A DNA stretch of 62,372 nt, the filler included, from Hausera hauseri (Eukaryota), in NCBI GenBank assembly GCA_046269625.1. It is 12 parts of 12 records of this genome, joined end to end, with 100 filler letters (N's around TTAATTAATTAA, not from the genome) between each part and the next. Parts side by side here need not be neighbours in the genome. Positions count along the whole stretch, not along the records: positions 57,471 to 62,372 come from JBJURY010397367.1; 11 more parts are not named here. One strand, given 5' to 3'. Below, piece after piece: positions 25,948-62,372 of this stretch; positions within the stretch are counted from its first letter, which is position 1, and each line of letters begins with the position of its first letter. Both the position numbers and the translations under genes were made by a program. The notes under the pieces were generated by a model, which did not search any database, was not told the DNA's origin, and was given only the letters and a program-made list of their open reading frames with translations.

Positions 25948-25988
25948 CGGTTATAAACAGCTACGTCTTAGCATCAATACGTCCAAAA

Positions 25989-28522: not shown

Positions 28523-28570
28523 TAATAAACAAACTGCATCATCACTATCATCATCATCATCATCGAGATC

Positions 28571-29995: not shown

Positions 29996-30002
29996 TAGAC
30001 AA

Positions 30003-32986: not shown

Positions 32987-33028
32987 GCCAGGATCTGCCG
33001 ATAATACTGGCGGCGAAATCAGTTTTTT
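32987..33028 (-). promoter_or_regulatory. -1 frameshift heptamer AAAAAAC plus pseudoknot
   Basis: AAAAAAC TGA TTTC GCCG CCAG TATTAT CGGC AGATC CTGG; same spacing as 2619..2660. Confidence 0.8.
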
Positions 33029-34116: not shown

Positions 34117-34332
34117 ACCGCCGCGGATTCTAGAATTGATATGTATACATAGATAGTTATGTGAAGCCATGATGCGTTGGAGGTCGGTTAAAATAAAACC
34201 GTTATGAGTCAGATAAAAATCACTGAAGACAGAGGTATTATAAATGATACCGTATAGTTGTGATGTTTCGATACGTTGTCTGACATGTACAATTTGTATT
34301 AGATTATTATGAACATAAAGGTAGAAGGGGAA
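34117..34332 (-). CDS. 72-aa ubiquitin-like domain ending RIRGG, in frame with gag
   Basis: FPFYLYVHNNLIQIVHVRQRIETSQLYGIIYNTSVFSDFYLTHNGFILTDLQRIMASHNYLCIHINSRIRGG|MISQP. Confidence 0.75.
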
Positions 34333-34713
34333 TGATAATGATGTACTGTAAACCGGGTAGTGTGATATATCGATGTGGTCATTCGAAGGTAAGAGAGTTG
34401 CTGTTTCTTTTAAAAAATATGTCCGGCCTGTGGACTCACTATGGTTAATGGATCTATTGAGCTTATAATCGATGCGTACTGAAAAATATCGACAATAACT
34501 AGAAGGGGACGGATTCTGTCCATAATCAGAAGCTCTAGCAAGGTACTCCCTNNNNNNNNNNGGGCCGACTTTACAATAACTTGCGTTACTTCTACCTCTT
34601 CTCATTACAGATTCATCGAATTTCATATATGATTCGTTGTCGAATTTTGTAGGTTTGGCAAGACAAAGTACGGGTGATATACAATTAGCAATGCCGCGAC
34701 CTGACTGGGCTAT

Positions 34714-35235
34714 TTTATTAATTTCTACGTGGCCATCATTGAATTCACGCATTCCTACGAGAGTCAAACACCTCCGAACGTAAAAGTATAGTTTACCAAT
34801 TTTGTCCAATGAAGCTAATTTAAATTTCAATGTAGAATAAGTAACTTTGTCAACAATAGCAAGATATCTTGAAAAACGATGTCGTGGACAAAGAATAAAG
34901 TGAAACAACTGTTGAATAGAATACACGAAATTTATGATCTGAGGAATAAAAAAAAGAAGTGTTTTGCTGAAATGGCCTAGAATTGCAACGAAGGTAAAAG
35001 TGGTGTTGAAATAATTGCAAAATGTATCACCAACGAACGCCTTTGCTGGATATCGATTGTATTAAAAAAAACCGAGGCAACAGAAAACGTACGGAATCAT
35101 AAAAATCAAAGAGAAAAGATTATTCTGCCGAGACGGACCGGTAACAAATGCAATAAAATTGAAGCAAGAAATAGACCCTGCAATAACCGAAGTTTGGTCA
35201 ACTTCTATTCCATTAATACCTGCGTAAATATTGAT
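34714..35235 (-). pseudogene. DPAGT1: Intronless fragment of UDP-GlcNAc:dolichyl-phosphate GlcNAc-1-P transferase
   Basis: INIYAGINGIE..Q, NRYPAKAFVGDTFC, ILGHFSKTLL, FIPQIINFVYSIQQLFHFILCPRHR are DPAGT1/ALG7 signature motifs; one stop plus indels. Confidence 0.9.
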
Positions 35236-35279
35236 GGGAAGTAGTAGGAAGGGAGCGCATGACCCCACCCCCCCCCCAT

Positions 35280-40719: not shown

Positions 40720-40895
40720 TTGGCCACCAAGCCGGCGCAGTTTTATTGGGATGGAATCCATAAATTGCCCGAAAGATGGGGAAAAGTTTTAGTTTCAGAT
40801 GGTCAATACTTTGAATAACATGATATTTAGAAATTTCTTAAAATAAAGTTTTATTTTCACAAATAAATTCCGGTTTTTAAGTTGCGCTCCCAATA
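40720..40895 (+). mobile_element. Mariner transposon 3' end (transposase C-terminus and TIR)
   Basis: FYWDGIHKLPERWGKVLVSDGQYFE*, then ...GCGCTCCCAATA followed by TA. Confidence 0.9.
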
Positions 40896-41169
40896 TACAA
40901 ATGAAAAAAAATTCTTCTGCGAAATGACGTAACGTTCAAATGGTCTCATTTTATGATTTTGATTCTCCTGACAAAGTTTTAAGGATTTTCAGGCATTTAT
41001 AAATGCAAAAAGGTACTTAACAGTTGTCATCAGTTATGTACGGTATGAACGGCAAAATGATTTGAATTATCTGAATGATCGCTCAACGTCAATCGATGCA
41101 CTGTGCCAAGATATTTGTCTGTGTGGCCAAAATTGAAAATTTTCAATTTGCTCTTTAAAATGCAATATT

Positions 41170-41790
41170 CATTGATCTTCAACAACACCGTGCTATCTAA
41201 TCTACAAACGGTAGATTATGATTGTCTTTGTATGAAATCTTTATCAATCTTTCTTAAACAAAACTTTATTCTATTCTTCAGCTGTTCAATATTTATCGTT
41301 TTCCAACCATTCTTGTAAACATCTCTTCGAAATAGATCAAAAGTTCTCAATAAGTCTTGCTTCTGGTAAATTAACTAGGTTGTCATCATCAAAGATCCAG
41401 TTATGATTTGGAAATTTGCGCAAAAGTCGGCCACACTTGGTTTTCGCAAGCTGTCTTTGGGCTTCTGTTCGCTTAGGAATCTTAGTTTTCCTTCGCTTTT
41501 TGAATTGGAGATTTTGTTTTGATTATTTTATATAACATTGTGGTGTGAAGTTGAATTTACTCTCAGCTAGTCGGTATGAAACATTGTCCTTTTCCAGCTG
41601 GTCAATTTTCTTTCTGGTCATCTTCATAGCTTTGCGACCACTACCAACACGTCTCTTGTATCCTGATTCATTCTCAACATGTCCAATAACACGGTAGATG
41701 ATGGATTTGGGTACATTTTCTTGTAAAAAATGATCTACCGTGTACTTTTTATCTTTTCCTCGACTCGTTTTCAAAGCGATTTTAAATTCG
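41170..41790 (-). mobile_element. Internally deleted Tc1/mariner-superfamily (DD37E-like) transposase
   Basis: HTH region and RRVGSGRK, WIFDD joined directly to NLPEARLIENF..KR.VY..GW. Confidence 0.7.
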
Positions 41791-42100
41791 TTCTAAAAAT
41801 AAATATAAAAACCATATAAAACATTCTCATTTTTTAGTGAACACTCGGTAACGGTCCGTCGAAAAATACCCCCCTTACACAAACGCCACGTTAGAATTAC
41901 ATTCAATGATGCCATATTTGGACTACTTATGTTTTACAATGTTATGATTTAATAGGGATTATAAATTAATCTTTTTATTTATGGTTATTTCAAATTTAAA
42001 GTTGTCGAATTTATGGATCGACAAAAAGTTGCAACTGAAGTGAAAGTTATTGATTTATTCATTGGCACTTATTTTTCGTCACTGGTGATTATGTAAAAAA

Positions 42101-43360
42101 AACTCTGCTGTCGTTGGTGCCTTTGACGTGTCATCCACGGTAAGATTCACTTTGAGATTTCCTATCAACATTCAACAAATAAAATCGAATCCCGAAATTC
42201 ATCAAATACGTTTCGGATCCTGGGACTTTAGACGGGTTTCTGAAAAAAAAAGTCAAATGAAATCTATTAGTTATTTTCGTATTGATTTTCAGGTTCCTCT
42301 TGAAAAATTTTCGAAACTTCTTGGATTTGAAAGCGTAAATGAAGCAGCACAATTTTGCAGAAAGATTAAAATTCGTTGTGTTATTGATAATGACAAAAAT
42401 GTCATGATTATACCAGGTTCCGAAATGGATTTTACCAACGGGCCGATTATGCGATTCAAAGTAATTCAATAAGTTAACCAAAATATAAACGAATGGACAC
42501 TTCAGTTAACCGAGGACAAGATTGGCGGCCGAAAATTATCGGCGATATTGAGCGGTTCGAACGATATTTTAACAAATCCATTTGTTTTGAAAGAATGTCG
42601 TATGGTGTCCTTTGATGTTAATGATACATATGTCGGCACCAGGAAATTGCCTGACATACCAATTAAAATTAAGACAACGATAAAGGATGATAAAAATTTG
42701 AAAAGACCAAAATTATTAAAGAACAAACAGGATTTCGTTGATGATGATGATGATGTCATTGAAGTTCCAATAAAAAAGAATCAGTTCATTGATCTGACTG
42801 ATGATCGTAGCAGTCCACCGACCCATCCAACATTATCGATATCAAATAATCATTTCAGTCGTCTAGAAAAAATCTACAATACTGGAATGGGAAACATAGC
42901 CAATTTATTTAAGAAAAGCAAAACTGATGTTGTTAATTCTTCAGTGACGGAAGTTGGCTTGTTTTCCCAATCAGTCTCAACCGCTATAACGCAGCAGTCT
43001 TTGTTTGTGACAACTCCGTCATCTGTCAATTTATTCCCGTCGACGATTTCAGGTGGTATCAATCTGTTTTCACAAAGCTCATGCTCAACGAACACGAATT
43101 TGTTTGGTCAGAGTTCGTCGTTTTCCGGCTCAACTGGACAGTCTTTCCTTGCACCAACAGTATCGATTTGTTCATCGGATCAAACAACAGAAATGAACTA
43201 TGACGAGGAGGAGGAAGAAGAAGACGATGAATATATTAATGAGGATGAATATATTAATGAGGATGAAGACATTAATGAGGATATCGGTAATGTCTGATCT
43301 TGTTACTACAACTTTGTAATTGGGCCATTTCAGAAGCTGTCGAACTTCAGCCAGAAACTG
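42101..43360 (+). CDS. Host gene fragment, GANP/SAC3 (MCM3AP)-like, multi-exon
   Basis: AVVGAFDVSST|VPLEKFSKLLGFESVNEAAQFC...|...SFDVNDTYVG resembles the SAC3/GANP domain end; GT-AG introns 42140..42292, 42461..42505, 43287..43333 keep frame; LFxQ low-complexity and acidic tracts. Confidence 0.65.
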
Positions 43361-43732
43361 TAAGTATAGCCTGAATTGTTTTAACTTACCATAATGACAA
43401 TTTTAGCATTTCAAAAAGATTATAAATATCAAAATGACAAGTCATTGAAATGAATGATAGAATGGATTTTTTTTTTCTAATATCCAAAGAGAATTGAACA
43501 TTTTGAGTTTTTAAACAATTTTTCGAACTGCAGTAAAACTTCGTCATAATGACTTTTTTTCGTGGAAACGAAAAAATTGCTTTTATGAACAGAACGAAAC
43601 AAAAACTATAGAAATTTATATTTATTATACCAATAATACGTGAATTCATTCTGATCATTGATGTATATTCTGCAAGAAAGTAATCCACAACAGAGGTCTA
43701 CTGTGTGCATCGCGTAGAACGACGAATATTAA

Positions 43733-43801
43733 CCATTTGCACTCTGAGGTCGCCGCTGTAGCGACATTATAAGACATTAAAATTGCTCAGAGCGTAAAGG
43801 G
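43733..43801. mobile_element. 69-bp piggyBac-type MITE
   Basis: TTAA on both sides (43729, 43802); imperfect 16-bp TIR CCATTTGCACTCTGAG / CTCAGAGCGTAAAGGG. Confidence 0.8.
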
Positions 43802-44389
43802 TTAAATGAATATTTTCTAGTAGAAATTAATGTTAAATTTTACATAAAATTTACTATCCATCAGACTACAGTTGGGAAAGTATTAAATAACCAAATAATT
43901 CAATTTTAGATTTAGAACGGAATGTGGATTTTTATAAGAAATTGTCAGAAACGTGCAAAATATACTGTTGATTAATAATATGAAAAAACTTTTTTCCCAA
44001 GTTAAAATGTTACAACTTTTCGCGCATGTTCAAGTCCCTCACAAAAATATCCAGGAATTTTGACATTTTCGGTAATTTTCTCGAGTTAAAATTTTTTAAT
44101 ATTCGATTAATAATGTTTGTTTGTTGTGCTGAAATAAAAAATATCCATCGACTATTTGGCTAACAGTTTGTAGTCTCGTGTGCATAGCCAAAATGTGTAC
44201 ATGAGAGAATGTACGATTGATAATAAGACTAATACATTTTAAATTGACAGAATTTCTAGAAAACAAATTAAATATTTAAAGAATTTTAAGAAATCAATAT
44301 AAATTAATTATTTAATGAACAGTAACTCTGTTGAAATCAGGGAAACCTAGTATTGGCGGTGTGGCTAAGGCTCTTTTTCATTGACTCGA

Positions 44390-45665
44390 AAGCCTCATTA
44401 CATTGTTCAGCCCATACTAGTTTCTTGTTAATCAATCCGCATAGTTGCTCCAATGTCTTGGCCTTTGCTGCGTAACCTTGGATAAATCTTCTAGATCCCT
44501 AAGAAGCTTCTCAAATTCTTGACACATTTTGGTTTTTCAAAGAACTTAATTGCTTCCAGTTTTGATGGGTCTGTCTGTATCCCCTTGTCATTCACTATAT
44601 GCCCTAAAAATTTTACTTCTTTCTTGAGAATGTGACATTTCTCTGGGTTTACTCTGGACCTGCCTCCCTGATCCGCTGCAATACCTTTTCTAGTATCCTA
44701 TAATGCTCTTCTAGAGTCTTAGAGAAGATCCATATATCATCTAGGTATACCACTGTTTGTGCAATGTACCCTAGTACTTTATTCATTAGTTCTTGGAAGG
44801 TGCCCTGGGCTGCTGCTATACCGAATGGCATCCTGTTGAAACAACTGTCCTAATTTGATTGAAAACGCCGTCTTCAATTTGGAGTCTTCCTCTAACTCGA
44901 CTTGATAGTATGCATTCCATAGGTCGATTGACGTGAAAAACTTGGTCCCGTATAACCTGTCTCTCTACCACATTAGGCATGGGGAAGGCCTGCCGTTCCG
45001 TTATAAGATTCAGTTATCTAAAGTCCAGGCATATTCTGACATCGTTCTTGTCTTTCTTCCTTACGCATATCATTGGTGTATTCCATGCTGTTACATGGCT
45101 TGATAATGTCGTTTTCCCATAAGTTTCGGATAGTCTCGTGGATCTTCTTTTCTAGGTTTACTGGTTGCCTGTGAGGTTTGATATTAATCGGCGCTCCTGT
45201 CGTGTCTATTAGGTGTTTGATGAGAGATGTGCACCCTATGTTTCACTTGTCGGCCATGAATACTTCTGGGTATTTCTGTAGATCTTTATCGTCACTCACC
45301 CGAAGAGCTTCCTTCGCCCTGTTGACTCGTTCTTGGTTAGTCACCTTACGGCCGAACTTGGCTTCCAGATTGCATATATCTTGCTGTAATGTTTCCGTTT
45401 CTGTGCGTTTCCATTCCAGTTTTATTCCGAATGCCTTTTGCAGGTCCACGCCACCTATTATTTCTGGGCGTAATTCCGACACTACCAGAAATGTTACACG
45501 TCTCCTTAGACCCTCGATTTTTACGTCTGTTGTCAGTGTGCCTAGGCAATCTAAGAGGCTATTGTTCGAACATCGTAGTGTGGTATCTGATTTCTCTATG
45601 TGTGTCTTTGCAAGTTTATCCACGGTTTTCTTGCTAATGACGTTTACTTTGGCACCCGTGTCCTA
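44390..45665 (-). mobile_element. Ty3/Gypsy pol remnant (PR-RT)
   Basis: DTGAKVNVI, IIGGVD, CLDFR.LN, MPFGIAAA, VYLDDI, KFLGHIV. Confidence 0.9.
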
Positions 45666-46712
45666 TAACGGTGTATAGTAGTCCAAATGATAAACAGTGA
45701 GAGGCTCCACGAGGAGAGACACCTCGAAAACAGTGATCATGAATGATTCAACATTTAATATGGATGTATTTTCCTTTTATAAATATTTTATTTGCTGTTC
45801 GTTGCGAAATGATGAGTTAATAAAGGAATTAAAACGAATGGTAATACGGTATTCGATAAAACAAACAAATTTTGTAAATCGAAATTAAATCGAATTGTAA
45901 TTTTATTTTGTGACCTTCGGGTAAAAGTTCTCACACATTGCTATACTGTAAAACAAATAAGCAACGGCTGAAAAGGCTTATATACTTGCGTGGGAAATTA
46001 TAGAATTAAGGATGTAATTGATACATTTAAACAAAAGTATAGAATGTTCCGGAAGTCCATAGATTTTGTAAAATGTATATTTTATATAAAAATGTCCGTA
46101 AACTTTTGCAACACCGTAATATTAGGATGTTGATTTGTCATCGTTTATGTATAAAGTCAACATTTATAAATTTAACGGATTCTGTGTCAGACAACTAAAA
46201 ACAAATACCAGATTTGCTTATTTTTGGAAGTATATAGTGAATATATAATTTGCACACATACACGTCATTTAACAGTATTTGGCTTTAAAAATCGGATCAA
46301 AGCACCATTCATGTTCTACAAGACAAAAGCATCACTAAACTATCAACATCGTATTCAATTGGCGGAAAATATATTTTTCACAAAATGTCTAACAAAATAT
46401 CCATGGAAATGACATTTATTATTCCAATACATAAAATAATTCCAATACTTACTAAATATGTGCATTCCTATTACTCTGTACATGATCGAGCTAAGCTATT
46501 ATCAAAATAAAATAAACAAAATAGAATAAATAGAAAGCACTTACAATAAACTTCCAGTGAATTTCAATTTGTAATCTAAATGGACTAAATGGAAAAATAA
46601 ATAAACAAAAGCTACTTACTGCTATTTTCTTAATTTCTCTCATTGTTACCTGATAAATGAATAATGGATTATAACATTTAAATAAATTTACCTTGTCATT
46701 TTTTGGTGATTA

Positions 46713-46812: not shown

Positions 46813-46992
46813 GGTGAAGAAATACGCGGTAAATTCTACGAACAGGAACTGCAGGTACTGCCCGAGAAACCCGATGTATATCGTATTCAAAAAATTCTAC
46901 GTTCACGCGGAGAAGGTTCGAATAAACAATATCTCGTCAAGTGGCATGGATACACTACACCCAGTTGGACATTTGCATCGCAGATTGAGTGA
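46813..46992 (+). pseudogene. Integrase C-terminal chromodomain
   Basis: GKFYEQELQ...YRIQKILR...QYLVKWHGY. Confidence 0.85.
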
Positions 46993-48062
46993 TGAGCATT
47001 TATTTGATACTTGATAGTAACAAATTATTGGAACATGACAACAACAATAACAATACTGCTGATCAGTTTACCATGGCATTGGACCAGCAGCTCGACTTAC
47101 GCCAGGGAGCCTGGGAAGTGGCTTTGGCGGAATTTACGTTTACATTTTCACAAATAAGAATACGTGAGAACAGTAGAATATACTATACTCTGGTAAGACA
47201 ATCTCCTGCATCTAGTCGTTTGCAGTTAGTCCGAGACTCTAATGGAACATTTTATGTTCTCAATTATCAACGGCAATATTTTCTTGTATACATATTTTAT
47301 TTAAACAATCGATTGGTGCTAAAACACAAATATCCGATTGAATTGCAATTTAAATCACTAGCCGACTCTCAAGCATGGGGTTTTTAATCATCTGCCAATG
47401 TGCACGCGAAAGGTTTACAGCTCGGTTGACAGAGTATAATTAGTGAAAAACTGAACTTTTCCACTGCGAAAACCACCGATATTACAGTGAACTGGCAAGA
47501 GGCTGAATCATTCTTTTACTATCATATAACAGGAATTGGTTATCTTACAGACACAAAAACAGAATTCTGTGAAACCATCAAAACAGTAGCTAAATTGGTT
47601 CTCAAGACATTTGAATTAAACTCTAATGGTCGTACTTCCTTTACACTACATGATAATATTACATATTTTGCCTTTGATAAACTATTAACACGGAATCTGG
47701 GTTTTAAGAAACGAGAATTCGGTCAAACCGGCGGCGAACGGCCCATTGTTGCTAAACACAAACCACGTCTTTACGAAGCATTTTATCGAATCAATATTTT
47801 AACGGATCTAACCGAACCACTATATGTTGGCGGAGACCGTAAACAACTATTGGCTTCTATTGGACTGGATTTGGACACGTACAAAACACCGTGCGAAACT
47901 GCTTATGTAAATATCATCCGGCCCATGTATTTATCGTTGTCTCACAATATTGTGAACAGTATTTCCGTGTATATGATAGACGAATTTTGGAAACCCTTAA
48001 AATTTCTGTTCGGAGCCAAGACACATTTGATGCTACATTTTTGTCATCTTCGCCATCGATAA
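46992..48062 (+). pseudogene. Minor capsid protein (penton) 1
   Basis: IYLILDSN..NTADQF..WEVALAEF; EPLYVGGDRKQLL..THLMLHF. Confidence 0.82.
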
Positions 48063-48110
48063 TAAACAAACTGCGTCATCATCACCATCATCATCATCAT
48101 CATCGAGATC

Positions 48111-49202
48111 ACGAGTATTTACATGGTGTTGCCGCGCAACAGTTGTTCGACGACTCGCCCGAACAATTCAGCCAGTGAATACCTAATAGATTGGAACAAT
48201 CCTATGGATTTTTCTACTGGAAAATTGGAGGTTGCACTGACGGAATTTAACTTTCCTTACGCACCAGTGACATTGAAAAGTAGTATGAAAATAACGTACA
48301 ACAAGACTGTTACTGAAACCAAAACACATTCTTGTCCTCTGACGCTTACTAACAATAAAATAACAGTTGGAGAATCGGCCATTTGCACAACCGAAACAGG
48401 TCCGGTTCACAGGGCAAAATTGGTTTTTATATTTTAGGGAAAAACTTAGTTCTTATGGCAAATTTTGAATTTACTGTTACCTTTTCGTTCTCTGAGATGG
48501 CGCAGAAATTTGGATTCAACAATAGAGTACGAAGACAATCATATTAAAAGTGAAAATATAGTTGCTCCAAGATTAAGTCCCGTATATTACTAGACAACGG
48601 TGAAATTTACTTATATAACAGAAGGTGTGTCAACGTCATACGTATCGATTAGAGACAATGTCTATTGCAAATCTTTAGCACAGCTCTGTCAATACTTTTC
48701 CAATCAAAAGTACAAGGCGATATTTAAAGTTTTCGAGTCAGATAAAAATTGGTACATTAAATTTGAACTGGTTATGGATATTGTTGACATTTCATTGGAC
48801 ACAGCTTTGTCCATGGTGTTGGGTTTTGAAAAACAGCGGTTTGAGACATTGACGAATACGAAGACGGCGGCGGTACATGTTGCAACACTCAAACCCAAAC
48901 TGAAAACGGGACAAAGTCAAATGTACGTTTACGTGAACGTCACCGAACCAGTTTTGGTCGGTGGAGTACGTGTACCGCTACTTCGTGCTATTTATCTGGA
49001 AAGCAGCAAGTATACTGATGGTGACAATGGCACTGTCAAACTCGATAATCCAATGTACCTACTGGTGGCGTCTACATCTATAAACAATGTTGAAGTGAAT
49101 ATCCGATGTGACGCGGGCTACCTTATTGAATTCCTGTACGGTACCAAAACCAGCCTAACTCTTCACTTTCGTCGAATCCAACAACAACGACAACATGATT
49201 GA
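48111..49202 (+). pseudogene. Minor capsid protein (penton) 2 (start ATG>ACG)
   Basis: PNNSASEY..EVALTEF; YVYVNVTEPVLVGGVRVPLLR..TLHFRR. Confidence 0.85.
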
Positions 49203-49555
49203 TTCCGAAATCGTTTCCATTTACAGTAAACCGAAGCAGGGCGGGGAATTGCCGTATTTCTTCGGTAAACAGTACGGCTCTGGCTGGTTGCATATATTGG
49301 TACGTTTAGCATTTCCGGTGTTGAAACGTATTGGTGCCGTGGCAGCAAAAACAGCACAGGACGTACTATATTAAAACAAATCGATTTTACCATCGTTGAA
49401 GGAACGCCTTGTGCAAAATAAAAAGTGCTGCACCGGGAGTTGTTGAATCAGTCAAAAAACCGTTCGCTGGCAGTGGCTTGATGCGGAAACGCCGTAGAGC
49501 ATCATCGAACTCATTAGCTATAAACAAACGTCGTCGTTGTACGATTTTCGAGTGA
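49195..49555 (+). pseudogene. Adintovirus core protein (QYGSG-type)
   Basis: QGGELPYFFGKQYGSGWL; basic tail. Confidence 0.7.
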
Positions 49556-49556
49556 T

Positions 49557-50789
49557 ATGGCATCTGCAAAATCTGAATTGTGCATATTTGACAAAGCGTC
49601 GCCAAAAGTTGTTATTGACAATGCGGCATTTGAAGAAATCTACCCCGTTGATTCGGTTTCAACGGACGATAACATTGACATTTAATTCAACATAATGGCA
49701 TGGGACAATGAATACATGGATTTGAACGATACGTTACTCTATGTAAAGTCATTGTTAAAAAGGATGCATCAATGGTTCTGTCTGCAACAAACACTGTCAC
49801 AACGGCCAATTACTTTTTCCTCACACTGTTCCAAGAGGCTTCACTGACTCTGAACAGCGTCAAAATCGAAGACAACACCAGTCTGTACAGTATCAAAGCA
49901 TTCATTGAAATGATTCTGAATTACAGTACTGACACGAAAACTACTCATTTGACGAAAACTATCGGATACGATGCCACAGAGGCAAACAGTCAGACATGTG
50001 TGGCAAAATCAAAAACATTTACAGTGTGTGGACCGCTATACTTTGACTTTTTCGATCAGTCAAAATACCTACTGCCTGGTGTTAAAGCCATGATTCGGCT
50101 CAAACGCAGGGACAATGTCTTTTGTTTGTAAACCGCCGTAGAAAATCTTAAACCCATATTGAAAATTTCCGAGGCACGATTATACGTACGTCGTGTAAAG
50201 ATAGAACTATCCGTGCTCATGGAACATCGATTGGGTTTGGAAGCGCAAAATGCCTGTTACCCGATACAACGCACAGAACTCGTCTGTTACACCATACCCA
50301 AAGGTTCGACAGCTTTTTACTAATATGCACTGTTTGGCAACATGCGATTGCCGAAATTTGTGCTCGTTACATTTCCAACAACTGTTCAACAAACGGGCAG
50401 TTATATCGCCGATTCGGAAACGTTTACCCCTAGCAATGTGAATTACATCAGTTTGGGTCTGAATGCGGATGTCGTTGAGACGTACAAACAAGACTTTGAG
50501 TCTAATGATTGTTTGAACATGTATGCAATCTATCGTGCGCAACATGGGTTTGCTTAACAAAAACATCAACCATGGCATATCGATGGATTTGTTCAAGTCC
50601 ACCTATCCAATCGTCACCTTCATGCTAGCTCCGGATTATGACGTTGAACAGACTCATCTACATCAGGGGGAAAACCTGCAACTGGAAATTCACTTTGCCA
50701 AAGCGTTGGAACAGTCTACCGTGATGTAAATTTACGGTGTATTTGATGCCGAAGTTAAAATAACGAAAAACGGAACCGTCATTGTATAG
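49557..50789 (+). pseudogene. Major capsid protein, full span, interrupted
   Basis: MASAKSELCIFD...FFDQSKYLLPGV...LYVRRVK...GENLQLEIHFAKAL. Confidence 0.9.
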
Positions 50790-50910
50790 ACAAAATCTGA
50801 AGTGTCTCATTTCTTCGTCGTCGTACTATAAAGTAATTTATTACTACTATTACTATTATACTTAATTCACATTTAGCTTCACCGAGCTCAGTTACTAAGG
50901 AAAACTGCTT

Positions 50911-51227
50911 ATGGGCGTGAAATTTCGTGGCGTCTTTCCACTGGACTGTGTGCCGCATGANNNNNNNNNNAATACACAGACTTCATCTTTTCCGAATGAA
51001 CATTGGATTGCTGTGTACGTCCGCCGTCCGACTAACGTCGTCATAGTATTCGATCAGCTTGGATTTTACTATCCGTCATCGTTAGTTTTTCAAATTCATC
51101 ATTTTTCATCATTTTTCAATCATCATCATACCGTGTTGAATATAATCGAGTTCATTATCAACATCCAATGACTATTCTGTGTGGACTTTACTGCTTATTG
51201 TGGCTTACATTACAATCACTTTTGTGA
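50911..51227 (+). pseudogene. Adenain-like cysteine maturation protease
   Basis: FRGVFPLD, NT..S..P.EHWIA (His), VFD (Asp), YQ....LCGLYC (Gln, Cys). Confidence 0.88.
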
Positions 51228-51426
51228 AATATATATGTGTATTATTTTATTGCTATTGTTTTTTTGAGAAAAGATATGATATGTGTGACTTTTCGTCACA
51301 ATCATTTTCCTTGTGAGTCGTGATTACTCAGTCACGAGCTCATCATCGTCGTCATCGCCGTCGTCGTACACGACGTTTTACAAAACAAAACAAAACGAGA
51401 TTTTGACTTTTTAACAATGCATTTTT

Positions 51427-51476
51427 TCGTTCTTTCGTTCGTTCGTTCGTTCGTTCGTTCGTTCGTTCGTTCGTTG
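51427..51476. repeat. (TTCG)n microsatellite
   Basis: ~11 units visible. Confidence 0.95.
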
Positions 51477-51549
51477 CACATTTTTCACACTCCGACCCAT
51501 TGGCCTGATCGTGAGGCGGCTATAATATGAAATGCTCAACTTCTGATGG

Positions 51550-51649: not shown

Positions 51650-51748
51650 AATGTAGTGCTTGAAACGTGATCGCCCTGGAGGAGTTAGCGGGTCGGTGAG
51701 GAGAATTTCCCCGCCATGTGACACGTAAAAATTTTAATATCTGGAAAT

Positions 51749-52141
51749 TTGGTTAATTTGTTTCGTTGTGGTGTTGTCGGACATGACTCGGAAAGAATGA
51801 AAAAAAAAGCGGCAATAACAAGATTTTCCATTTGTCTTCATCGACCCAGCTGCGTTGCTGTAACATGTCTGTTAATGTATTACAAAGAGAATATTCCATC
51901 TTACTTAAGGGACCGTGTTGATATTTTTAATAGCGATGTTAAAACAATAAAATTCCTCAGTTTACTAATATCCGAACCGTATTTTACAAATTTGGCAAGA
52001 CTGTGTGAAGATCATAGTTCAGAACGTTTGTTATGGTTTATAAGTCGTAAAACGCTAAATAGTATTCGCGCAGCTAGTCCTCCATTGCTTGAGACAATCT
52101 CGAAAAAAAGGAAAAAGATGATGACAGAAGTGATAATTTGA
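51749..52141 (+). CDS. Hypothetical Polinton-associated protein with NLS-like tail
   Basis: 130-aa frame, KKRKK near the end, AATAAA at ~52163. Confidence 0.35.
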   Translation: MVNLFRCGVVGHDSERMKKKAAITRFSICLHRPSCVAVTCLLMYYKENIPSYLRDRVDIFNSDVKTIKFLSLLISEPYFTNLARLCEDHSSERLLWFISRKTLNSIRAASPPLLETISKKRKKMMTEVII

Positions 52142-52309
52142 AACACTATAATTTTTATCCCGAATAAATACTAATGCTACTTCAATCGTNNNNNNNNNNG
52201 CTTTTGTTTAAAATGTAGAAATGTTGATATTGATGAGAAATGATTTTTTAAAAGTTTAAATAAAGAATTGTTGTTATGAGTCTGTTTCTATCATCGTTGG
52301 AATTGCATT

Positions 52310-52888
52310 ATGCCTTTACAATGCAGGATCCACACCTGTATCCCGCATGTTTTATTCAAAACACGTCCGTACGCCGACTTTTATGAGATGCACTAGTATC
52401 ATCTCGGTCCGTTCACGCGATCCAAGAAGATGATGCATGTGCATTACCCCACATATCCACGTTACTATACTTGTAAGGTGCATGACGTTGATGGTTACAA
52501 TAGTGCAGTGGAGCAGTACTATGGAGCCACAACGGTGCACTGTAAACGGGCCTATGTATGTCCCGGTTGTTCTATAGTTGAGACTCAAGTCAACTATAAA
52601 CAATTATACAACAACCACAAAGACCAATTGAACCAGTTTCAGAGGTCCAGAAAGCAAATATTAATGGACACAGCAAGAAACCGCAGAAAAAGTCAAGCAT
52701 CAGAAAGCCTTAACAAATACTTTCAAAACAACAGAAGTCAGCAGCAGAAGGAACGTGAACCACCCATTACTGTCAAGTATTACCTGAACAGATCATACGT
52801 GGACATGAACGTGGACATGTCGCCGAAAACAGCAACGCAATTAAAAAATGTACCGCTAATGTACGTAACCGGTTGGAGTCAGAGGTAG
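52310..52888 (+). pseudogene. Cys/His-containing ORF upstream of, or N-terminal to, pPolB
   Basis: MPLQCRIHTC...CKVH...VCPGC; one internal stop. Confidence 0.35.
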
Positions 52889-52889
52889 C

Positions 52890-55800
52890 CAAATTATAAC
52901 AACAACACCATGGCAAAGTGTAATATTATTCACTTGCAGAATTTGAAAATCTGCAGGGTGACAGGAAACAATGACACCTGTCACATCGAGCCGTACCATA
53001 CTCTGAGGATTTTATTGTTGATGTAGAAGAAAAGCTTGATGAAAAAATCGCCAACTACATCGAAAAGGGCAGTGGTTGGCGAATTGTAAAGATTGTCACT
53101 CTCGGCTTTATTCTGATCAAAACGAGTCACATGATTTACCTGTCCGGACATTCATTCATACCGACACCTGCATCCTTGAAGCAGTCTCTGGTGGTAGTGA
53201 ATGTACAAAATACTAAAAACGAATACTGCTTTATTTACAGCATTCTGGCCATATTGAAATATGATCAAGTATCCAGACATCATGCAAATTATCCAAAGCA
53301 GTACAGTAAGTATTTCTCAGAATTGGACTACGACGACTGTTGGATGCCGATAAAACTCAAAACCATTCCGGCTTTTGAACTGCGTAATCTGACACTGGAA
53401 ATCAACGTGTTCCGGTTCAACACAATCGTAGAGGTACCGGTGGATGAGGAAATTTACAAGAATCCTCACGTGGACATAATTCACCGCAGTCAAAATCCAA
53501 TTTGACGCCAGGTAAAATTGTTGCTGTTTGAGAATGAAGAAAAGTTTCATTACACGACCGTGACCAATTTGGACAGATTGTTGAACATGGAGGATGACCA
53601 GTTTATAAAAAAGCGTATACGGTGCAAATGGTGTCCCGTGTGTCTGTATTGATTCCGTTCAAATGAGACATGGGAAAGGCATGCGACGCTGTGCAGGCAA
53701 AGTTCTTCAGGAACCACAATGTATGTTATGAATGTCAAAAAGGAGTTGAGATTCAGTGACTGGTCAAAAACGGACAGTCCGACATAGGTGGTGTATGCCG
53801 ATATCGCAGAACGTCTACCACGACACAATGTATACGATTAAAAGCACGTTCCAATTGCTGTCGGTATGTTGCCAGTACCAATAAAAGCCGCCGAACAACC
53901 GCAGTATTACGTTTTGCATGGTTGGAACTGTGTACACGATTTTCTCCAGCAGTTGAAAACAGTAGTAGAAACGGAAATCGCACCCTGGTACACTAGAAAT
54001 AGCAATAAACCTTTGATGTGGATAGATAAAAATGAACGTCTGATGTTTGCAGCCACAGATGAATGTTACCTGTGCCACAAAATATTACCGTTTGATGCAA
54101 AAGAGCAGCTCATACCAGATTATGATCATTTTACCAGCCGATATCTCGGAGCAGCATGCAATTCGTGCAATTTGGCAAGGCGTGTGCGGCCATTCCTGCA
54201 GGTGATTTTCCTTACTTCCGGGGTTATGATTGTCACCATATTTGAAAATGGGCCATAAACGGATTTCCACACTGGGAACTACCCATAATTCCGACTGCGA
54301 TGGCGAAACACCTTTCACTGTCTGCTCGTATTAACGGGTTCCAGGTACACTTCTTTTATCCATTACAATTTCTCAATGAATCTTTGGCAAAGCTGGTAAA
54401 TTCCTTGCCAGATGTGCCGCTAACATTGACTGAGTTCCCCACACATATTGCACGTAGCAAAGGTATGTCCCTGTATGACTTTGCGATATTGTACGAGTGG
54501 CTCCACACGACAGACGAATTACCACCGCAATGGCCCGGTATCACAGAAGAAGAAGATTATCACAAAGCACAGTCGTTTTGGGCAGAGCTCGACTGCAGAA
54601 ACCTGTTGGACTACATGCTTCAATATCTGAAATTGGACGTGTACCTGTTAGCCGATGTGATCCCAGAGTTTCGCGTGAAAGCTTTGGCTGAAAATAAGCT
54701 GGAGCCAATCAACTTTTATTCCATACTGGGAATGAGTAATGCGTCAGCTCCAATGTCACTGGATCGAGACACTGAGCTACTAGACCCGGAAATGTACCAA
54801 CTGTTTGATGCTGGTATTCGCGGCGGCATGACATTTGTCAACAAGCATCAGGTCAATGCTACCGATACAACATCATTGCTGTATATTGAATGTTAATAAC
54901 CTGTACGGCTGGGCGCTTTCGCAACCCTTGCAGTACAGTTCATTTGAATGGATAGTCGGCAGACAAGATTTGGACGACATAATGGTCAACCTACCACCAG
55001 CAGACTTGGCAGGCTCAGTCGGATACCTGATGGAGGTCGATCTCGTGATACCAGATGAGCTGCATGACGTTTCTGATGATTTACCGGTCGCACCATTTAA
55101 CCAATGTCCGCCAGGCTCAAAAGTGAAGAAACTGCTCATGACGCGTGAACCGAAGCTGAATTACGTGGTCCATTGGCGTCTGCTACAGTTCTACATGCAG
55201 CTCGGTGTATGCGTCACACAGTTGCATCATGCAATCCGATTAGCTTAGACTCCCATATTCAAGGCGTACATAGATGAAAATTTGGAGAAACAAGCCGCAG
55301 CTTGTACAAAGTTCGAAAAGGACTACTACAAGCTGAAAAACAATTCTCTGTACGGAAAACAGTGGAGAATCTGAAAAGCGACTCAATGTGTGCCTATGCC
55401 ATAGCGAAAAGCAGTTGGTTATGTACACGATTATGGCGCAGTTTCGGTGGCCAATGCACATTGCCGTTGGATTGGTTGCAGTATTGTTCAGCCGGGAAGA
55501 AGTCTTTCTGGGCCGGCCAAGTTACATCGGACAAGTGGTATTGGACCTGAGCAAGTTGCAAATATGTGACCTACAGTATCGCGATTTGGCACGTTACCGG
55601 CAAATGTTTGACGGCTGTGACATTAGTATAATTTCCGGTGACACAGGCAGTTTTTTCCTGCGGCTAAAAAAAGTCAATCGCGAAAAACTACTGCAGCAAA
55701 TGCAGTCAGATGGATTACTGGACACGTCCAACTACCCACCGGATCATCCGTTGTACAGTAGCGCCATCACCAACAAAATCGGCTGCTTCAAGGATGAAAG

Positions 55801-56116
55801 TGAAATCAGGGTTCAGTATCTGGAATGGATATTCCTACGCCCAAAGTGCTACAGTCTTCTGACGGACTGTGGACCGAAAATGCGGGAAAAAAGAGTCCAG
55901 GTGAAGCAGATGGAAATCGGCCACGGTGATTATCGCCTTGTATATGAAGAAGGAGGATAATCAGTGGTTGTTGTGTCTCAAACTATCATCCGATCAATTG
56001 AGCACCAGCTATACACAATAACTAGTGCGAAAGTCGCTTTGTCATGTAATGATGATAAGCGAAATTGGGTGGGGCGAAAAAAGAATTGGGCGTACGGACA
56101 TTGGCGGCTAAAATAA
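52890..56116 (+). pseudogene. Protein-primed DNA polymerase B (Polinton/adintovirus), near full span, decayed
   Basis: KGSGW, NVQN...CFIYSILA, endoVII-like CYLC..DH..GAACNSCNL, YLKLDVYLL, GIRGG, NNLYG, KNNSLYGK, GDTGS, FKDE, LRPKCY, DDKR. Confidence 0.95.
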
Positions 56117-56417
56117 ACGTACGTCCAAACAATCAGTTCAGTTCAGCTCAGTTACTGTGACAATCATTGACAATTATCCATTATTTTGTTGTATATTTCA
56201 GTAACGTATTTTGTTTAGTGCCTTTTGTGTTTTGTTTTCGGTAACTTACTTAATCTATTATTATTATTAAGTAAGACAGAAGTAAAAGTAAAACGATAAC
56301 CTTGCTCTAGAAAACAAAACATGTAACACGAATACATTTATTTATTTATCGGAGAAAAACTAAAATCACAAAAAACACAAGGTAAGTCAGTTAAATCATA
56401 GTAAACTTTCCCATTTT

Positions 56418-56852
56418 TCATATTGGAGATTTGACGCCGGTCCTTCCCTTGAATCCTTTAAGCTTCTGTATCAGGTAGCCTTTAGCTCCTTCCGCTGGCA
56501 AAACTGCTGCTGTTCCTCCGCCATGTAAACTGACAATTTTCGCCATATTTCCTTTGAGAAAAATCAATGATGCGTCTCGGATATCGTTACTCAATACCAA
56601 ATCACTGCCAACTTTTCTAATTGTGTCGTCAATTGTTTCCAAATCATCGTTACTGATCTTTTTCACCAATAGACCATGCTTCACCGATTTTGTTGTGACC
56701 GTTTGCGTCAATGGCAATTGAATAGCGTTGTGCATATAATGTAAGTTGTATTCATTATACAAGCGGGAATTTCTGAGCAAATATTCGCTATACCGTGGCT
56801 TTTTTGAGAGATTCGCAGAACTGTCACCTGCTGAATTGTTTTTAAAAGACAT
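56418..56852 (-). CDS. Intact orphan ORF (144 aa) convergent on pPolB
   Basis: ATG start, TATAAATA ~35-40 nt upstream, downstream AATAAA on the same strand. Confidence 0.55.
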   Translation of the reverse strand: MSFKNNSAGDSSANLSKKPRYSEYLLRNSRLYNEYNLHYMHNAIQLPLTQTVTTKSVKHGLLVKKISNDDLETIDDTIRKVGSDLVLSNDIRDASLIFLKGNMAKIVSLHGGGTAAVLPAEGAKGYLIQKLKGFKGRTGVKSPI

Positions 56853-57032
56853 TGTTTAAAGACAAAAGTAAAATGGAATTGCATCCATATTTATATCAGA
56901 TTTGTTCATACCGGTTTGTTTTTATTGTAAACAATAGATATTTACGTTGTGAGTATTGTCACATTCACAATGATACATGTTGTCACATTACAATGATACA
57001 TACCAGTTAAAATTACCCCCATGTCATAGACG

Positions 57033-57227
57033 TCAATCGTAATAAATGTGTACAATTTCCATTATAGCACATTTACATTCTGGACAACATTGGGTTACTT
57101 TGGTGGAACACATTTGACAAACAACGAGATGGCCGCACATTAAGAATACCGTATCCATTAGTTTTCGTTTACATAGTACACACATAAACTGACAGTCTTG
57201 TACTTTGTCAATTATTTTCTCTTTCAA
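57033..57227 (-). CDS. IAP/MDM2-type C3HC4 RING finger (C-terminal), 5' part unresolved
   Basis: CVLC...TVFLMCGHLVVCQMC....CPECKCAI...HIY. Confidence 0.85.
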   Translation of the reverse strand: MKEKIIDKVQDCQFMCVLCKRKLMDTVFLMCGHLVVCQMCSTKVTQCCPECKCAIMEIVHIYYD

Positions 57228-57370
57228 GGTCTTTAATTCGCCGCGTACCTTTTAGACAATATTAAAGTAATTCGTATCATACAATCGGTGAATGTATATT
57301 TGATTTATCACAATAATTTGATTTTCTCTAGAACTGCAATTTATTGTTGTTGTTGTTGTTTTCATCAATG

Positions 57371-57470: not shown

Positions 57471-60400
57471 ATGTAGGTGCCGTTTTTAATCCGAATGGCA
57501 TGCGCGTAAATTGATAAACGCCTGCATGCGTTTTAAATGCAGTTTTCCAACGATCCTTTTCGGCTACGGAAATCTGCCAAAATCTTCTCTCCAGATCCTT
57601 TCAATTCATCAATAATATCTCTTATTCGTAGTATTGGATAAGCATTGTTCGCCAAATGTTTGTTCAATGTAAAGTAATTTACGAAAAACGGTGTTTCGTA
57701 GTATTAGCTTTCTTAGCCATAACTATAGGCGACGGCCATGGTGATTGGCTAGGTTCAATGATGCCTTTTTCTAGCATGGCTTGTATTTTCTCCTCAACTT
57801 CCTTTTGGCGTGCTTTTGGAGGTGAGTACCATTTTGGTATCGGTTGTCGTGGTAAGTCTATTTCTCTTTCAGTTTGAGGATCCATCATGAATGGTAGTTT
57901 GAACTTGACTAAGTCAGTTCGGCCAATGTCCGTTTCATTTTTGGCAAATATGTCAGTGTATTCAAGGATGAGATCTGAGAAGTTCTCAAGATATTCAGCG
58001 ACTAGATTTTTCTTTACACTAATGAGAACAACATCGAATATATAATCTGCTTTAGTTTCCTTATCTTCAGTGTTGCTGCGATTTTATTATCATGTTCAGA
58101 TTGACGGATAGTTTCATATGAATTGGCCTAGTTTCGTTCTTGCAAACATTGTAATATACTTAGAAGATAAATTTAAAACTGCGATTTGAACTGTTCCTCC
58201 AGTTACATAAACGCAATAGTGTGGCAATAACAGTCCGTTTTGAAATGTCCGTGGTACAAATTCAATTATTTTATTATCTGGAAATATTGTTCTAGCATGT
58301 ATAACCTTCCTAGAATTAGGTGGTATTTTCTCCATATGACCTATCCAAATGTCCGTTTCGTCGTACTTATCCAGAATATTCTCATTATTTGGACAAAGCG
58401 ATCCTGACTGCAAGTTTATGTGAAATCCTTCTAAATTTCTTAATACATTCATTCCTAAAATACATCGGAGATCTACAGTTGTCATCACATCTAAAGTCAC
58501 TTTTAGTTTTTTACCACAAATTATAAATTTGCATTTCCAATACTTATATGATTTCGGATATTGCTGAAAGGCTGCTGTCGTGCCAATACAATCTGTGGAA
58601 GCCAATTTTGTTTGTGACTGATACTCGTCTGGTATCGCATGTTCTGCTATTAATGAAACTCTGGCTCCTCTATGTACCATTACATTTATATCGAATGTAC
58701 CAAAGTAAACTGTCGTATGATGTCGATTATCTCTTATTAACTCGAGGAAAGTGGCGATGCCATTAAGATCATCTATATGCGGCTCCATTAAGGTATAACT
58801 TGTTGCACAACAACTTGGTGACCCATTGGATAATATGACCGTTAAACTATCTAAAGTTTGTGTATCATTTGTTGATTCTTTCGTTCGTTGTTTGAATTCA
58901 GTTAAATCTGGGTAATAACTTGTACATTATGTAGAGTTTTGTTGTAATTTACCAGGTATCATCATTGAAATCGAATAACTTGTCCTTCCGTTTGGTTGTT
59001 CGATATCATTATAGTTGGTTTGTCTAATTAGTTTTACTCTATGATGAAGTATAGGTGGCAACGTACATAATTTTGGAGAGATTGGTAGTGATACTCTATT
59101 CCTTTCCATACTTTGAGTAATAATAGATTGAAGTATTTCTTCTTGCAAACATTTAGGAATACTGCGTAGCCTTATGTACTCTTCTCATTTAGCATATGGA
59201 TTATTCAAATCAGATAACTTTGGTAGTTTGTCAATTGTCTGTTCGTCAATCGAACGTGTTTTATTTTCATACGGAGCGTCTGGTACTATACAATTGCACT
59301 TTAGTCTTGTTTTCTTTATTATGAAAATTTTTCGGATTTTCTGATTCTTTTTCTTAGAAATACTTGGTTTTGAGTAATGTCCAGGTGCGTCATCACCATC
59401 GTCTGAACTTGATGAGGTATCTTCCAATATCGGATTGCCTTTCTTATAATCCACATGTTTTTCTAATTTACCTTGCAATTGATTTTCATGATAAGCTTTA
59501 ATAAATTTGCCAAGAGGAAAAAATAGAGTACCAATTATGCTCAAAGATAATCCTGTCAGATTGGAAATTTCCTAAGCATTTAATACCGAATTGATACAGA
59601 TCTTCAACGTTTGCAGGATAAAGTAAATAGCCAGAAATCCGGAAGCAACTTGTCCAAATTTTAGAAATCCACCCGACATTTTGTGCCACAAACTGAAAAC
59701 TATTTTTGTATAAGTGTCGGGTGTCCACAATCGATCCCATTTTCCTTCTCCAGTGGAATCATCAATTACTCTATGTATTTCTCTGTTTATTACCTGTTCT
59801 CGTTGTTTGGGATATGCCGGAAATTTTACAAATAAGTCAATTTCTTTTTTTCTATACAAAGCTGACTTTGATACATCAGTAAACATATTCGTTTTGATGG
59901 CATTTCTGAGATTAGTAATCGTCAATTTTTTGGTTGTTCCTTTACTCTATCTCTATCAGGTAGTCTAACCCATAAGTCTTGATTATCATATTTGATAAAT
60001 GGTTTGTTCAGTATTGTACAGTTTTGAATTTCCGTTGGTATTGTATGTGGTGCCAACAATACTCTAGTTATTGGCTGAAAATATCGAATTTCATCTTTAT
60101 ATTTAACAGGTATTTCTGAACTGCACGGGGTACCCGTGACTAAAGATAGTTCCAGTTTCTTACATTTGTAGGTAAATAACACTTCTCCCTGGATTCCTTC
60201 ACCATATGGTAATGTTATCGTTATCATTTCTGAATTTGAAGCGTAAATAGTCAATCGATTCCTCAATGTCTCAAAATTCATCTAACAAAAATTTTGTATT
60301 ATCTCAGAATATATTTCCTCTACCGTTTTGTGGGTGAGTTAAAATAAGAAATCGGCTCTGTTAGCAATATAGTCGTCAGCAATGTTCACTAATATGGTTT

Positions 60401-61122
60401 TGTTGATCGGCGAATTATCTGCCTGTGCGATCTCTTTTTCCGACATAAAATAATTTTTATAAAATGTGCTGAACACTTGTTGTCCACATGTAATAGTTAC
60501 ATCTTGTTGTATGAATTTGATACCTCCTTTGATATCTTTTGATATTATAATTTTAGGAGTTTGTTTTCAAAATTTGTTTCGTAATGTCGAACATAACGTT
60601 TTCCTGCCGTTACATTGAATTCACCTTTTCGAATCTGTACCAATGAGCAATCCTAGCTCTTAGGGGGTGTACATACTATCGTAGATGACTTTGTGTGACA
60701 ATGTTCAATTTCTAATTTTCAAAAAGATGCATCCATCATTGTGTTTCTACTCGTTTCGAAAATAAAGGTATTTTCTTTGATTTCTACTTTATATTGGTCA
60801 TATACTACCACTCCTGAAATGACATATTCCCCAGTATCAAGATTTCCTCCTCGGCAATTTCCTTTTTCATCCTTATGTCCGGTAATCCATTTTTCTTGTT
60901 AAGAAATGTGGCCTTTAATCGCTGTTAATAGTATGTCTCCCCATTTTACTTGTTGAGTTTCAGCTGCATCTCGACAATGAGTGGGATTAAGCGACACATA
61001 TCTTGGCATTGTAGTCGTCTGTATTAAAGAATCATGGTGTAAGTGTCCACAATATGTTATAGTGCGGGATACTCGCAACGAGTATTGTAGTACTTTTATA
61101 TGGAGCGTGCTTTTGTCATTAT
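57471..61122 (-). mobile_element. Ty3/Gypsy-type retroelement with env upstream of PR-RT, decayed
   Basis: Order on - strand: glycoprotein (61122..59500), linker, protease (VMVHRGA..ILGMN), RT (GIIEPSQSPWPSPIVM..MPFGLKTAP). Confidence 0.85.
59500..61122 (-). pseudogene. env: Chuvirus-like / gB-type glycoprotein (env), N-terminus cut by Polinton insertion
   Basis: ITYCGHLHHDSLI..HCRDAAET..W; GEVLFTYKC..CSSEIPV..PITRVL; TM FLKFGQVASGFLAIYFILQTLKICINSVLNA. Confidence 0.82.
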
Positions 61123-61165
61123 AGTAGTTAGAACGGAGGACTTCGCATTAACCCCCCCCCAGAAA

Positions 61166-61270
61166 AGGAAGGAAGCCAATGGGAGGAGAACACGTCATCG
61201 TGGGGAAGGAAAACTGGCGAATGGGAGGAATACACGTCATCGTGGGAAGGAAGGAAGCCAATGGGAGTAG
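61166..61270. repeat. ~42-bp subterminal tandem repeat with CCAAT, CACGTCA and CGTGGG(A)A motifs
   Basis: GGAAGGAAGCCAATGGGAG and ACACGTCATCGTGGG each occur twice. Confidence 0.8.
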
Positions 61271-61402
61271 AGGACCAATCAGGGAGCATTGGTGCCAAGT
61301 GGGTTTCACTATTCCCACCCCTTATTTGTTTTAATTTTGGTGGACGGGTATAAATATAGATGTGTAAATAGCATGGCGTTGTTTCAAGGAATAGTACGAT
61401 AA

Positions 61403-61703
61403 ATGGTAAGTTTTTGTACTACTAAATAATTTATATACTTAGAATTACAAAATAGATTTAGAAGCTGAAATTAAACGGCTCACGAAGGAAATATGCAGTG
61501 GGAAAATAGACTGTGTCCAGTTTCTTAATGAAATGGACAATGGATACTATCTGTCAAAAGAAGACTATGTTGAACTTGTTGTTCGTTCGATACTAATGAC
61601 AAAGATTAAAGAAGAGTTTAGAAAAAGACAGAGAAATATTATACTTGCGTGTAGTATACTTACTGGTGCATTTGTAGTATTTTTATCTAGATTTGTTCAT
61701 TAA
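61403..61703 (+). CDS. Spliced 87-aa tail-anchored membrane protein (not in the ORF track)
   Basis: TATAAATA 61349; ATG|GTAAGT intron 61406..61442; open exon NYKIDLEAEIKRL...RKRQRNIILACSILTGAFVVFLSRFVH*; AATAAA overlaps the stop. Confidence 0.6.
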
Positions 61704-61762
61704 TAAATGTTTTACGTGTCAATCTTGTTCACAACCAATAAAGAATAACATGAAATATTTAT

Positions 61763-62314
61763 TTACAAGTCTTTTTTTACAAAATCAGTGATTGTAGAAA
61801 TAAGCTTATTCTGTTTTGTCGCAGTCGAAGACAATTCCTGTAACAAATGCAGTAGATATCGGTATTCTTCCCGTTGTAAGGTTAGATTTTCCAATGCTTT
61901 TTCTGCTGGAATCAATTCAAATTGGATCCGTAACGTATCATTTGTTAAAATTGATTCTAAGTTTCGTAATGGGAAAAATTGCGGAAAACCACTTGCTATG
62001 TTGCGATCACTTTCAGGTTTTATATAACAAACCGAACTGCTGTCTGTTGTTATTTGGTTTGAACATATACAATTGCCTATTTCATTAAGTAGTGTCATTT
62101 CTATTTTTCCACGTAAAGGCCATTCCAGCTTATCATCATTTTCTCCTTTCACCAAGGCAAAAAATACCGATAAATGTGTATATCTTCCAATACCATCACC
62201 ATCTGGATAGATTCTAATACAGAAGTTGTACCCACAGATACTGAAAGTCTCACTGGTAATTACGTCCTTGATATTTTTAGTGAAGTTAGGTAATTCGAAA
62301 ATGTAGGTATTCAT
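61763..62314 (-). CDS. Stand-alone TRAF-type MATH domain protein with C-terminal coiled coil, intronless and intact
   Basis: GYNFCIRIYPDGDGIGRYTHLSVFFALVKGENDDKLEWP...KP...NIASGFPQF..NDTL; TATA ~62345 and CCAAT ~62363. Confidence 0.92.
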   Translation of the reverse strand: MNTYIFELPNFTKNIKDVITSETFSICGYNFCIRIYPDGDGIGRYTHLSVFFALVKGENDDKLEWPLRGKIEMTLLNEIGNCICSNQITTDSSSVCYIKPESDRNIASGFPQFFPLRNLESILTNDTLRIQFELIPAEKALENLTLQREEYRYLLHLLQELSSTATKQNKLISTITDFVKKDL

Positions 62315-62372
62315 AATGAATGAGAACTTGTTATATGTACGTGCTTATATACTTGATTGTAGCCAATCAGAG

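Follow-up and report, generated by a model that had tools for sequence, protein, structure and literature searches.

A decayed Ty3/gypsy copy from Hausera hauseri with envelope ahead of protease and reverse transcriptase, probably of the gag-env-pol type

Envelope, protease and reverse transcriptase at the locus

The window is the whole stretch of 62,372 nucleotides from Hausera hauseri (assembly GCA_046269625.1) analysed here; it joins 12 contigs of 4.0-6.7 kb with N spacers between them, and the contigs that we inspected hold eukaryotic mobile elements. We focused on a copy in the last contig (57471-62372, 4.9 kb, JBJURY010397367.1), where the minus strand from 61123 to 57472 carries an envelope (env) region, then a protease (PR), a dUTPase-like domain and the beginning of a reverse transcriptase (RT) of Ty3/gypsy type, confirming the order proposed in a first-pass annotation. 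Env is a PF24664 (Monjiviricetes_fusion) protein of the chuvirus/herpesvirus gB type, related to mononegavirus-type fusion glycoproteins, and it survives as three pieces in three frames. The N-terminal piece (60572-61123, minus) contains stops, matches profile positions 69-190 (E = 1.8e-08) and aligns to residues 432-606 of the database protein P0121. The middle piece (59928-60566, minus) lies in another frame, also with stops (E = 3.7e-13; 30% identity to the sister copy described below), and the C-terminal piece (59533-59931, minus; E = 2.8e-15; 41% identity to the sister copy) includes a transmembrane (TM) anchor placed by hydropathy at about 59670-59581. The env tail and linker (58720-59532, minus) follow in frame with both env and protease. 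A profile scan and a comparison with 273 proteins found no recognised domain in the linker of 260-290 codons, and a zinc knuckle is absent from the linker of either copy. A second protease hidden in the linker was considered and rejected, as it scored under the best shuffles against a profile of the relatives' proteases.

The aspartic protease (58414-58719, minus) matches PF00077 above the cut-off (E = 4.9e-05) and scores 35.9 bits against a profile built from the relatives' proteases, with its canonical catalytic motif not intact. The next domain (58117-58356, minus) has a predicted fold with a pLDDT of 85.5; the Foldseek matches listed were dUTPases and one dCTP deaminase (best E = 8.7e-04), and 23 of 28 PDB profile matches were named dUTPase (best E = 5.1e-04). 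A dUTPase-like domain between PR and RT also occurs in env-less gypsy Pol proteins, so it is not diagnostic alone. The RT fragment (57472-57849, minus; PF00078) is the N-terminal part of the enzyme, frameshifted and cut by the contig end. Its best PDB match was Ty3 RT (E = 1.7e-11), followed by what we take to be a caulimovirus-type enzyme (3.6e-05) and, third, MLV (0.002). All of the 120 matches listed, from a total of 188, carry PF00078, and none among these has PF05380 or PF03564, which we presume to be BEL markers. The RT is thus of Ty3/gypsy (Metaviridae) type, as judged on the fragment only. Belpaoviridae of the Anakin type, in which env reportedly lies behind pol, were rejected because the RT matches are gypsy-type and env stands before PR.

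The copy is dead: it is truncated and interrupted by stops, the frame shifts within env and within RT, and the protease motif is broken as noted. Env lacks approximately the first 70 PF24664 profile positions, with the 5' cut near 61120, and RT runs out at 57471. Because env is 5'-truncated on the contig, nothing here places env first in the element. Gag, LTRs, RNase H and integrase are absent from both contigs (4.9 and 6.3 kb), and the host, the LTRs, gag and the total size of the element lie beyond the reach of a 4.9-kb contig.

The sister copy lies on the plus strand of a 6.3-kb contig (17487-23816), which is one kind of multi-copy sequence end to end, with 3.4 kb of it before env. A ubiquitin-like stretch and a helical stretch precede env (19661-20900, plus; PF00240 E = 0.056, below the cut-off; atlas leads of 0.77-0.79). 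The pre-env part ends with an in-frame, signal-like hydrophobic stretch, identified by hydropathy, that together with the whole of env occupies 20901-22688 (plus; PF24664 E = 5.8e-54), with stops. The linker and a broken protease then extend to near the contig end (22703-23760, plus), with two stops in a stretch of 258 codons (a count reached by none of 2000 shuffles) and a C-terminal protease half scoring 22.4 bits. The database protein P0136 (zinc knuckle at residues 197-212) is collinear with the sister copy over 19772-21866, the stretches before env included. A single-sequence query gave no Pfam or PDB match to Bcl-2 in the sister copy. By eye, the ubiquitin-like stretch (19940-20230) and a short basic GRP-containing motif after it (about 20350-20400, plus) recur as a pair in P0136.

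The rest of the window contains other mobile elements. Retroelement fragments lie at 1-5142, 5243-9260, 9361-13320, 30703-35279 and 40720-46712, and by eye we take them to include gypsy-like PR-RT, BEL-like pol and a non-LTR-like RT frame of 552 codons. Contigs 23917-30602, 46813-51549 and 51650-57370 contain, by eye, integrase, capsid-like and family B polymerase-like frames and are presumably Polinton/Maverick-like; the first two have 73-94% identical blocks in common. A RING-like motif lies near 57080-57140 (minus).

The junction between env and pol

If env and pol had come together by insertion, the sequence between them should contain a boundary, and the first-pass annotation had pointed to 59185-58788 as the interval in which one might lie. 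From 59946 to 57683, a single frame has eight stops in 755 codons, compared with 58 and 64 in the other two frames, and none of 2000 shuffles was as low. The part from TM to protease (59571-58675) has two stops in 299 codons against 23 and 27, again with 0 of 2000 shuffles as low; the 133-codon interval used in the first-pass annotation gives a weaker signal (11 of 2000 shuffles). Since one frame is nearly open from the C-terminal part of env to the RT start, the junction reads as decayed coding sequence rather than as an insertion boundary. Neither a primer-binding-site-like (PBS-like) motif (CA..TGG) nor a long direct repeat was found in the junction, 59185-58788 included, and the sole LTR-like signal was an 11-nt purine run within a lysine-rich coding stretch.

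Contigs from two public sequencing runs also cover the locus. We placed 16,655 and 1,397 contigs on 57471-62372, and they covered 30 of 30 bins; one run, X1, is possibly the source sample itself, and summed depth does not equal copy number. In both runs the junction is tiled by divergent contigs with identities of about 85-88% (in X1, 58714-58905, 58812-59190 and 59050-59235). No single contig in the two runs spans the whole junction, and at least four single-contig skips fall inside it (15 of 38 joints listed). We conclude that the copy is one of many in a family whose linker varies, and that it does not mark a unique insertion site. Neither the search for LTR signals nor the tiling contigs revealed an LTR-like boundary in the interval.

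Comparison of the two copies gave a more mixed picture of what they share. The quoted motifs stand where they had been reported: TM at 59658 (minus) and 22563 (plus), the protease tails at 58422 (minus) and 23721 (plus), GIIEPSQSPWPSP at 57765 and MPFGL at 57501. The TM motif is indeed present in both copies; it makes no special tie between them, as a loose form occurs in 25 of the 150 env matches listed, including an env-last one. Likewise, the protease-tail motifs are found in both, while the tail alone aligns weakly (E = 0.78). The linkers are of similar length, with 286 codons from the env end to the protease motif here and 258 in the sister copy. This similarity does not extend to the relatives, as the distance from env to the first protease motif ranged from 82 to 342 residues in ten of them, and in some of these proteins that gap contains further proteases, ankyrin repeats or a zinc finger. 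The env proteins of the two copies align at 29-41% identity (E = 7e-20 to 2e-31), with no useful match at the nucleotide level. An old and stable arrangement had been proposed; the pairwise alignment agrees with an old split and the domain order is stable, and it is the linker that is not.

Database relatives and their placement

A HMMER search with the sister copy's env returned 531 matches, of which 150 were listed; among these 150, env identity to the nearest relatives does not exceed about 31%. Searches of word-indexed protein sets with the same env found no match of near or longer length, and we attribute these blanks to a sensitivity limit because the full HMMER search gave 531 matches. 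An IMG/VR scan produced 46 pattern matches with none confirmed, and a search of sequencing runs listed no RNA dataset carrying the sequence.

We scanned domain order in 18 env relatives taken from the 150 listed of 531, namely 14 from the 16 best matches plus four that are long but weaker. Protease follows env in 11 of the 18; in five the protein continues to RT and RNase H, and four of these five also have integrase. Intact relatives thus carry env, PR, RT, RNase H and integrase in one protein, and P0271, with 4844 residues, has the same domain order. Four of the 18 have a gag marker ahead of env, which in two cases scores under the curated cut-off. P0124 has a Bcl-2 match directly before env (E = 0.00096, below the cut-off). 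Two weaker env matches, P0144 and P0199, have env last. Some intact relatives contain more than one aspartic protease domain, with seven in P0271 (two beyond integrase), four in P0126 and three in P0122, and more than one in P0123 as well. P0121, a polyprotein of gag-env-pol type, is recorded at NCBI under a Flavobacteriaceae MAG as a hypothetical protein and is probably animal DNA binned with a bacterium.

The pol side of the copy points to the same proteins as the env side. P0121, P0122, P0129, P0134 and P0135 align with both its env and its PR-RT. The best PR-RT match among 273 proteins was P0122 (124.9 bits), which had been retrieved by env alone, and ordinary Pol proteins came next at 97.3 and 93.1 bits. 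Below the top, gypsy Pol proteins interleave with env-pol proteins: P0001 and P0002 rank above P0121, and P0134 and P0135 fall outside the top 12. Searching the env pieces against 120 RT-selected proteins (of 188 matches) gave no match. In a PR-to-RT tree of 33 rows, the copy and all six env-pol polyproteins lie on one side and 26 other Pol proteins on the other (90/95), with the support unstarred, the bootstrap unsettled, the copy on a long branch and the 26 drawn from 120 ordinary Pol matches. An RT-only tree left the copy unplaced, with the BEL outgroup drawn to it on long branches, and its careful search is unfinished. The shared frame, the relatives aligning with both parts and the PR-to-RT tree uphold the proposal that env and the gypsy-type PR-RT are one element.

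The env tree contains 46 rows from 48 candidates among the 150 matches listed (P0150, P0151, P0162 and P0169 were left out). Both copies fall in an 18-row group with 11 of 11 env-then-protease proteins (93/87), and stand-alone and env-last glycoproteins are set apart (100/97). The two copies are sisters in env (96/94), which does not support an independent origin for the copy in the last contig. On their env sequences, we conclude that the two copies represent sister families rather than independent origins.

Architecture, alternatives and meaning

Gag-env-pol architecture is already in print (PMC6431247, PMC13524379). PMC6431247 describes Burro/GYPSM1, giant gypsy-like elements of planarians, which are traced within that paper (Arkhipova and Yushenova 2019) to Jurka 2007 and Grohme 2018. 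There, env lies in frame between gag and pol and a dUTPase-like domain between PR and RT; the internal region between the LTRs reaches 25 kb, gag CCHC knuckles stand upstream of env in the same ORF, Ubi/SUMO-like and BCL2-like domains come just before env, and infectivity is put forward as a hypothesis (PMC6431247). The copy resembles this description in its mononegavirus-fusion-type env in frame before PR, its dUTPase-like domain between PR and RT and its many copies, and decayed Burro copies with stops and frameshifts are also described (PMC6431247). Further possible likenesses are the ubiquitin-like stretch before env in the sister copy, below the cut-off, and the MATH frame upstream of env, which sits in a much deeper repeat. 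The single-sequence query of the sister copy gave no Bcl-2 match, and the comparison is by description, with gag and LTRs off the contigs. No named Burro sequence was among the listed matches of the RT and env protein searches, and section 7 of PMC6431247, on Burro, makes no mention in its text of multiple protease domains. We consider the copy likely to be a distant relative of Burro.

Other described elements resemble the copy in part. Gypsy errantiviruses of GAG-ENV-POL order with an HSV/gB-type ENV are reported from Nematoda, Bryozoa and Platyhelminthes and are not monophyletic, and ENV-GAG-POL order is reported for two mites (Chary and Hayashi 2026, PMC13524379). The copy shares with the former a chuvirus/gB-type env before a gypsy pol, and its distance of about 860 nt from the env end to protease lies within the 2000 nt that the paper allows between a gB-type env and a downstream gypsy pol. 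By eye, six Schmidtea mediterranea env rows in supplement 2 of PMC13524379 are nearer to both copies than the bryozoan and nematode rows shown, and a short pattern from the Schmidtea rows matches both copies and 4 of the 150 env matches listed. The visual likeness hints, at little better than even odds, at a flatworm host. Their elements are intact, unlike ours, and the available text speaks of ORF order without the words 'in frame', 'fused' or 'polyprotein'. A metavirus is likewise reported to have env before pol, with a glycoprotein that is, by the title of the paper, of RNA-virus type (Sacco 2022, doi 10.1099/jgv.0.001739). Anakin BEL/Pao elements are reported to have the same chuvirus glycoprotein family with a BEL-type pol (Dezordi et al. 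2020, PMC7642597), whereas the RT of the present copy is of gypsy type and lies, with PR, downstream of env. Troyka was rejected because it is without an envelope gene and the copy has one. PMC12440569 and PMC11410931 are peripheral.

Taken together, these results make it very likely that the locus is a truncated, no longer functional member of a multi-copy Ty3/gypsy family that encodes env, protease, dUTPase-like domain and RT in this order, in one frame from the env anchor to the RT start. The element is likely a Burro-like one of gag-env-pol type that produced a single long polyprotein. The direct basis is the domain order, the shared frame, the domain identities, the many copies and the intact relatives. 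That one gag-env-pol-type Ty3/gypsy element working like Burro is present is well supported.

The 5' end admits another reading. Summed contig depth is some twenty times higher, or more, from the 61079 bin onwards, and 61079-62372 is a repeat that abuts the env 5' break and is far commoner than the env family. It holds a short tandem repeat just past the break (61165-61274; period 45 bp, 2.6 copies), where the much commoner repeat starts, and an uninterrupted MATH/TRAF-C frame (61763-62344, minus; PF22486 E = 1.5e-27) whose link to the element is uncertain. A nine-G run lies near 61150-61158 (minus). The copy could be an internally deleted Burro-like element in which the MATH frame is its own accessory gene, brought beside env by loss of gag and accessory domains: the frame shares its strand with env and lies 640 bases ahead of the break, and Burro has MATH in its polyprotein or in an upstream accessory ORF (PMC6431247). 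We regard such a deletion as unlikely, given that the MATH side is far deeper than the env side and that loose ends pile up at 61290-61339 (12 of 865 listed), as in a separate and commoner repeat. In addition, the frame has no stops whereas the element is decayed, and it matched none of 273 proteins. A deletion would bear on the 5' end only and is compatible with a gag-env-pol element.

The first-pass annotation called the layout env-first. A true env-first element would have no upstream gag or, as in the two mites with ENV-GAG-POL order (PMC13524379), a short gag hidden in the linker, and neither contig has gag while the linker is long and has no recognised domain. We consider this very improbable, as env in the sister copy comes after about 3.4 kb that belong to its own multi-copy family and end in frame with a signal-like stretch, gag markers stand before env in 4 of 18 relatives, neither linker has a zinc knuckle, and the gap from env to protease shrinks to 82 residues in relatives. 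Chance neighbours, meaning the env end of an Anakin-type BEL/Pao or other env-last element beside an inserted env-less gypsy pol, would suit the mosaic of repeats on this contig, with its break near 61150, and the PF24664 env at the 3' end of P0144 and P0199, and this reading is the least probable of all and largely refuted by the open frame across a junction without LTR, PBS-like motif or long repeat, the same order in the sister copy and 11 of 18 relatives, the place of env-last proteins on the opposite side of the env tree (100/97) and the grouping of PR-RT with env-pol proteins.

Judged from sequence, then, the layout is probably gag-env-pol rather than env-first, because the relatives carry env, PR, RT, RNase H and integrase in one protein, some with gag markers ahead. 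We infer that the family of this copy has gag, LTRs, RNase H and integrase as well. A model for processing such a gag-env-pol product can be drawn from its topology and from what is generally known of viral polyproteins. A single RNA would be translated into Gag and accessory domains first, and an internal signal sequence would then send the env ectodomain into the ER. The transmembrane anchor would act as a stop-transfer sequence, returning the chain to the cytosol and leaving Pol cytosolic, and Gag, Env and the Pol enzymes would be released by signal peptidase and the protease that the element encodes. A class III-type Env could produce particles that fuse with other cells, allowing spread from cell to cell.

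The copy and its sister represent two more decayed families of a published, little-studied architecture. In retroviruses and insect errantiviruses env is a separate 3' gene, whereas this architecture encodes Gag, a membrane glycoprotein and Pol in one reading frame, whose product has to be threaded across the ER membrane. Intact planarian elements suit the question of infectivity better than a broken fragment does. It is possible, though we hold it only tentatively, that the two families form their own deep in-frame gag-env-pol branch in an animal outside the dugesiid planarians. If so, Burro-like single-polyprotein retroviruses would have a wider host range, and the stacks of up to seven proteases in the relatives may point to modular cutting of membrane-crossing polyproteins.
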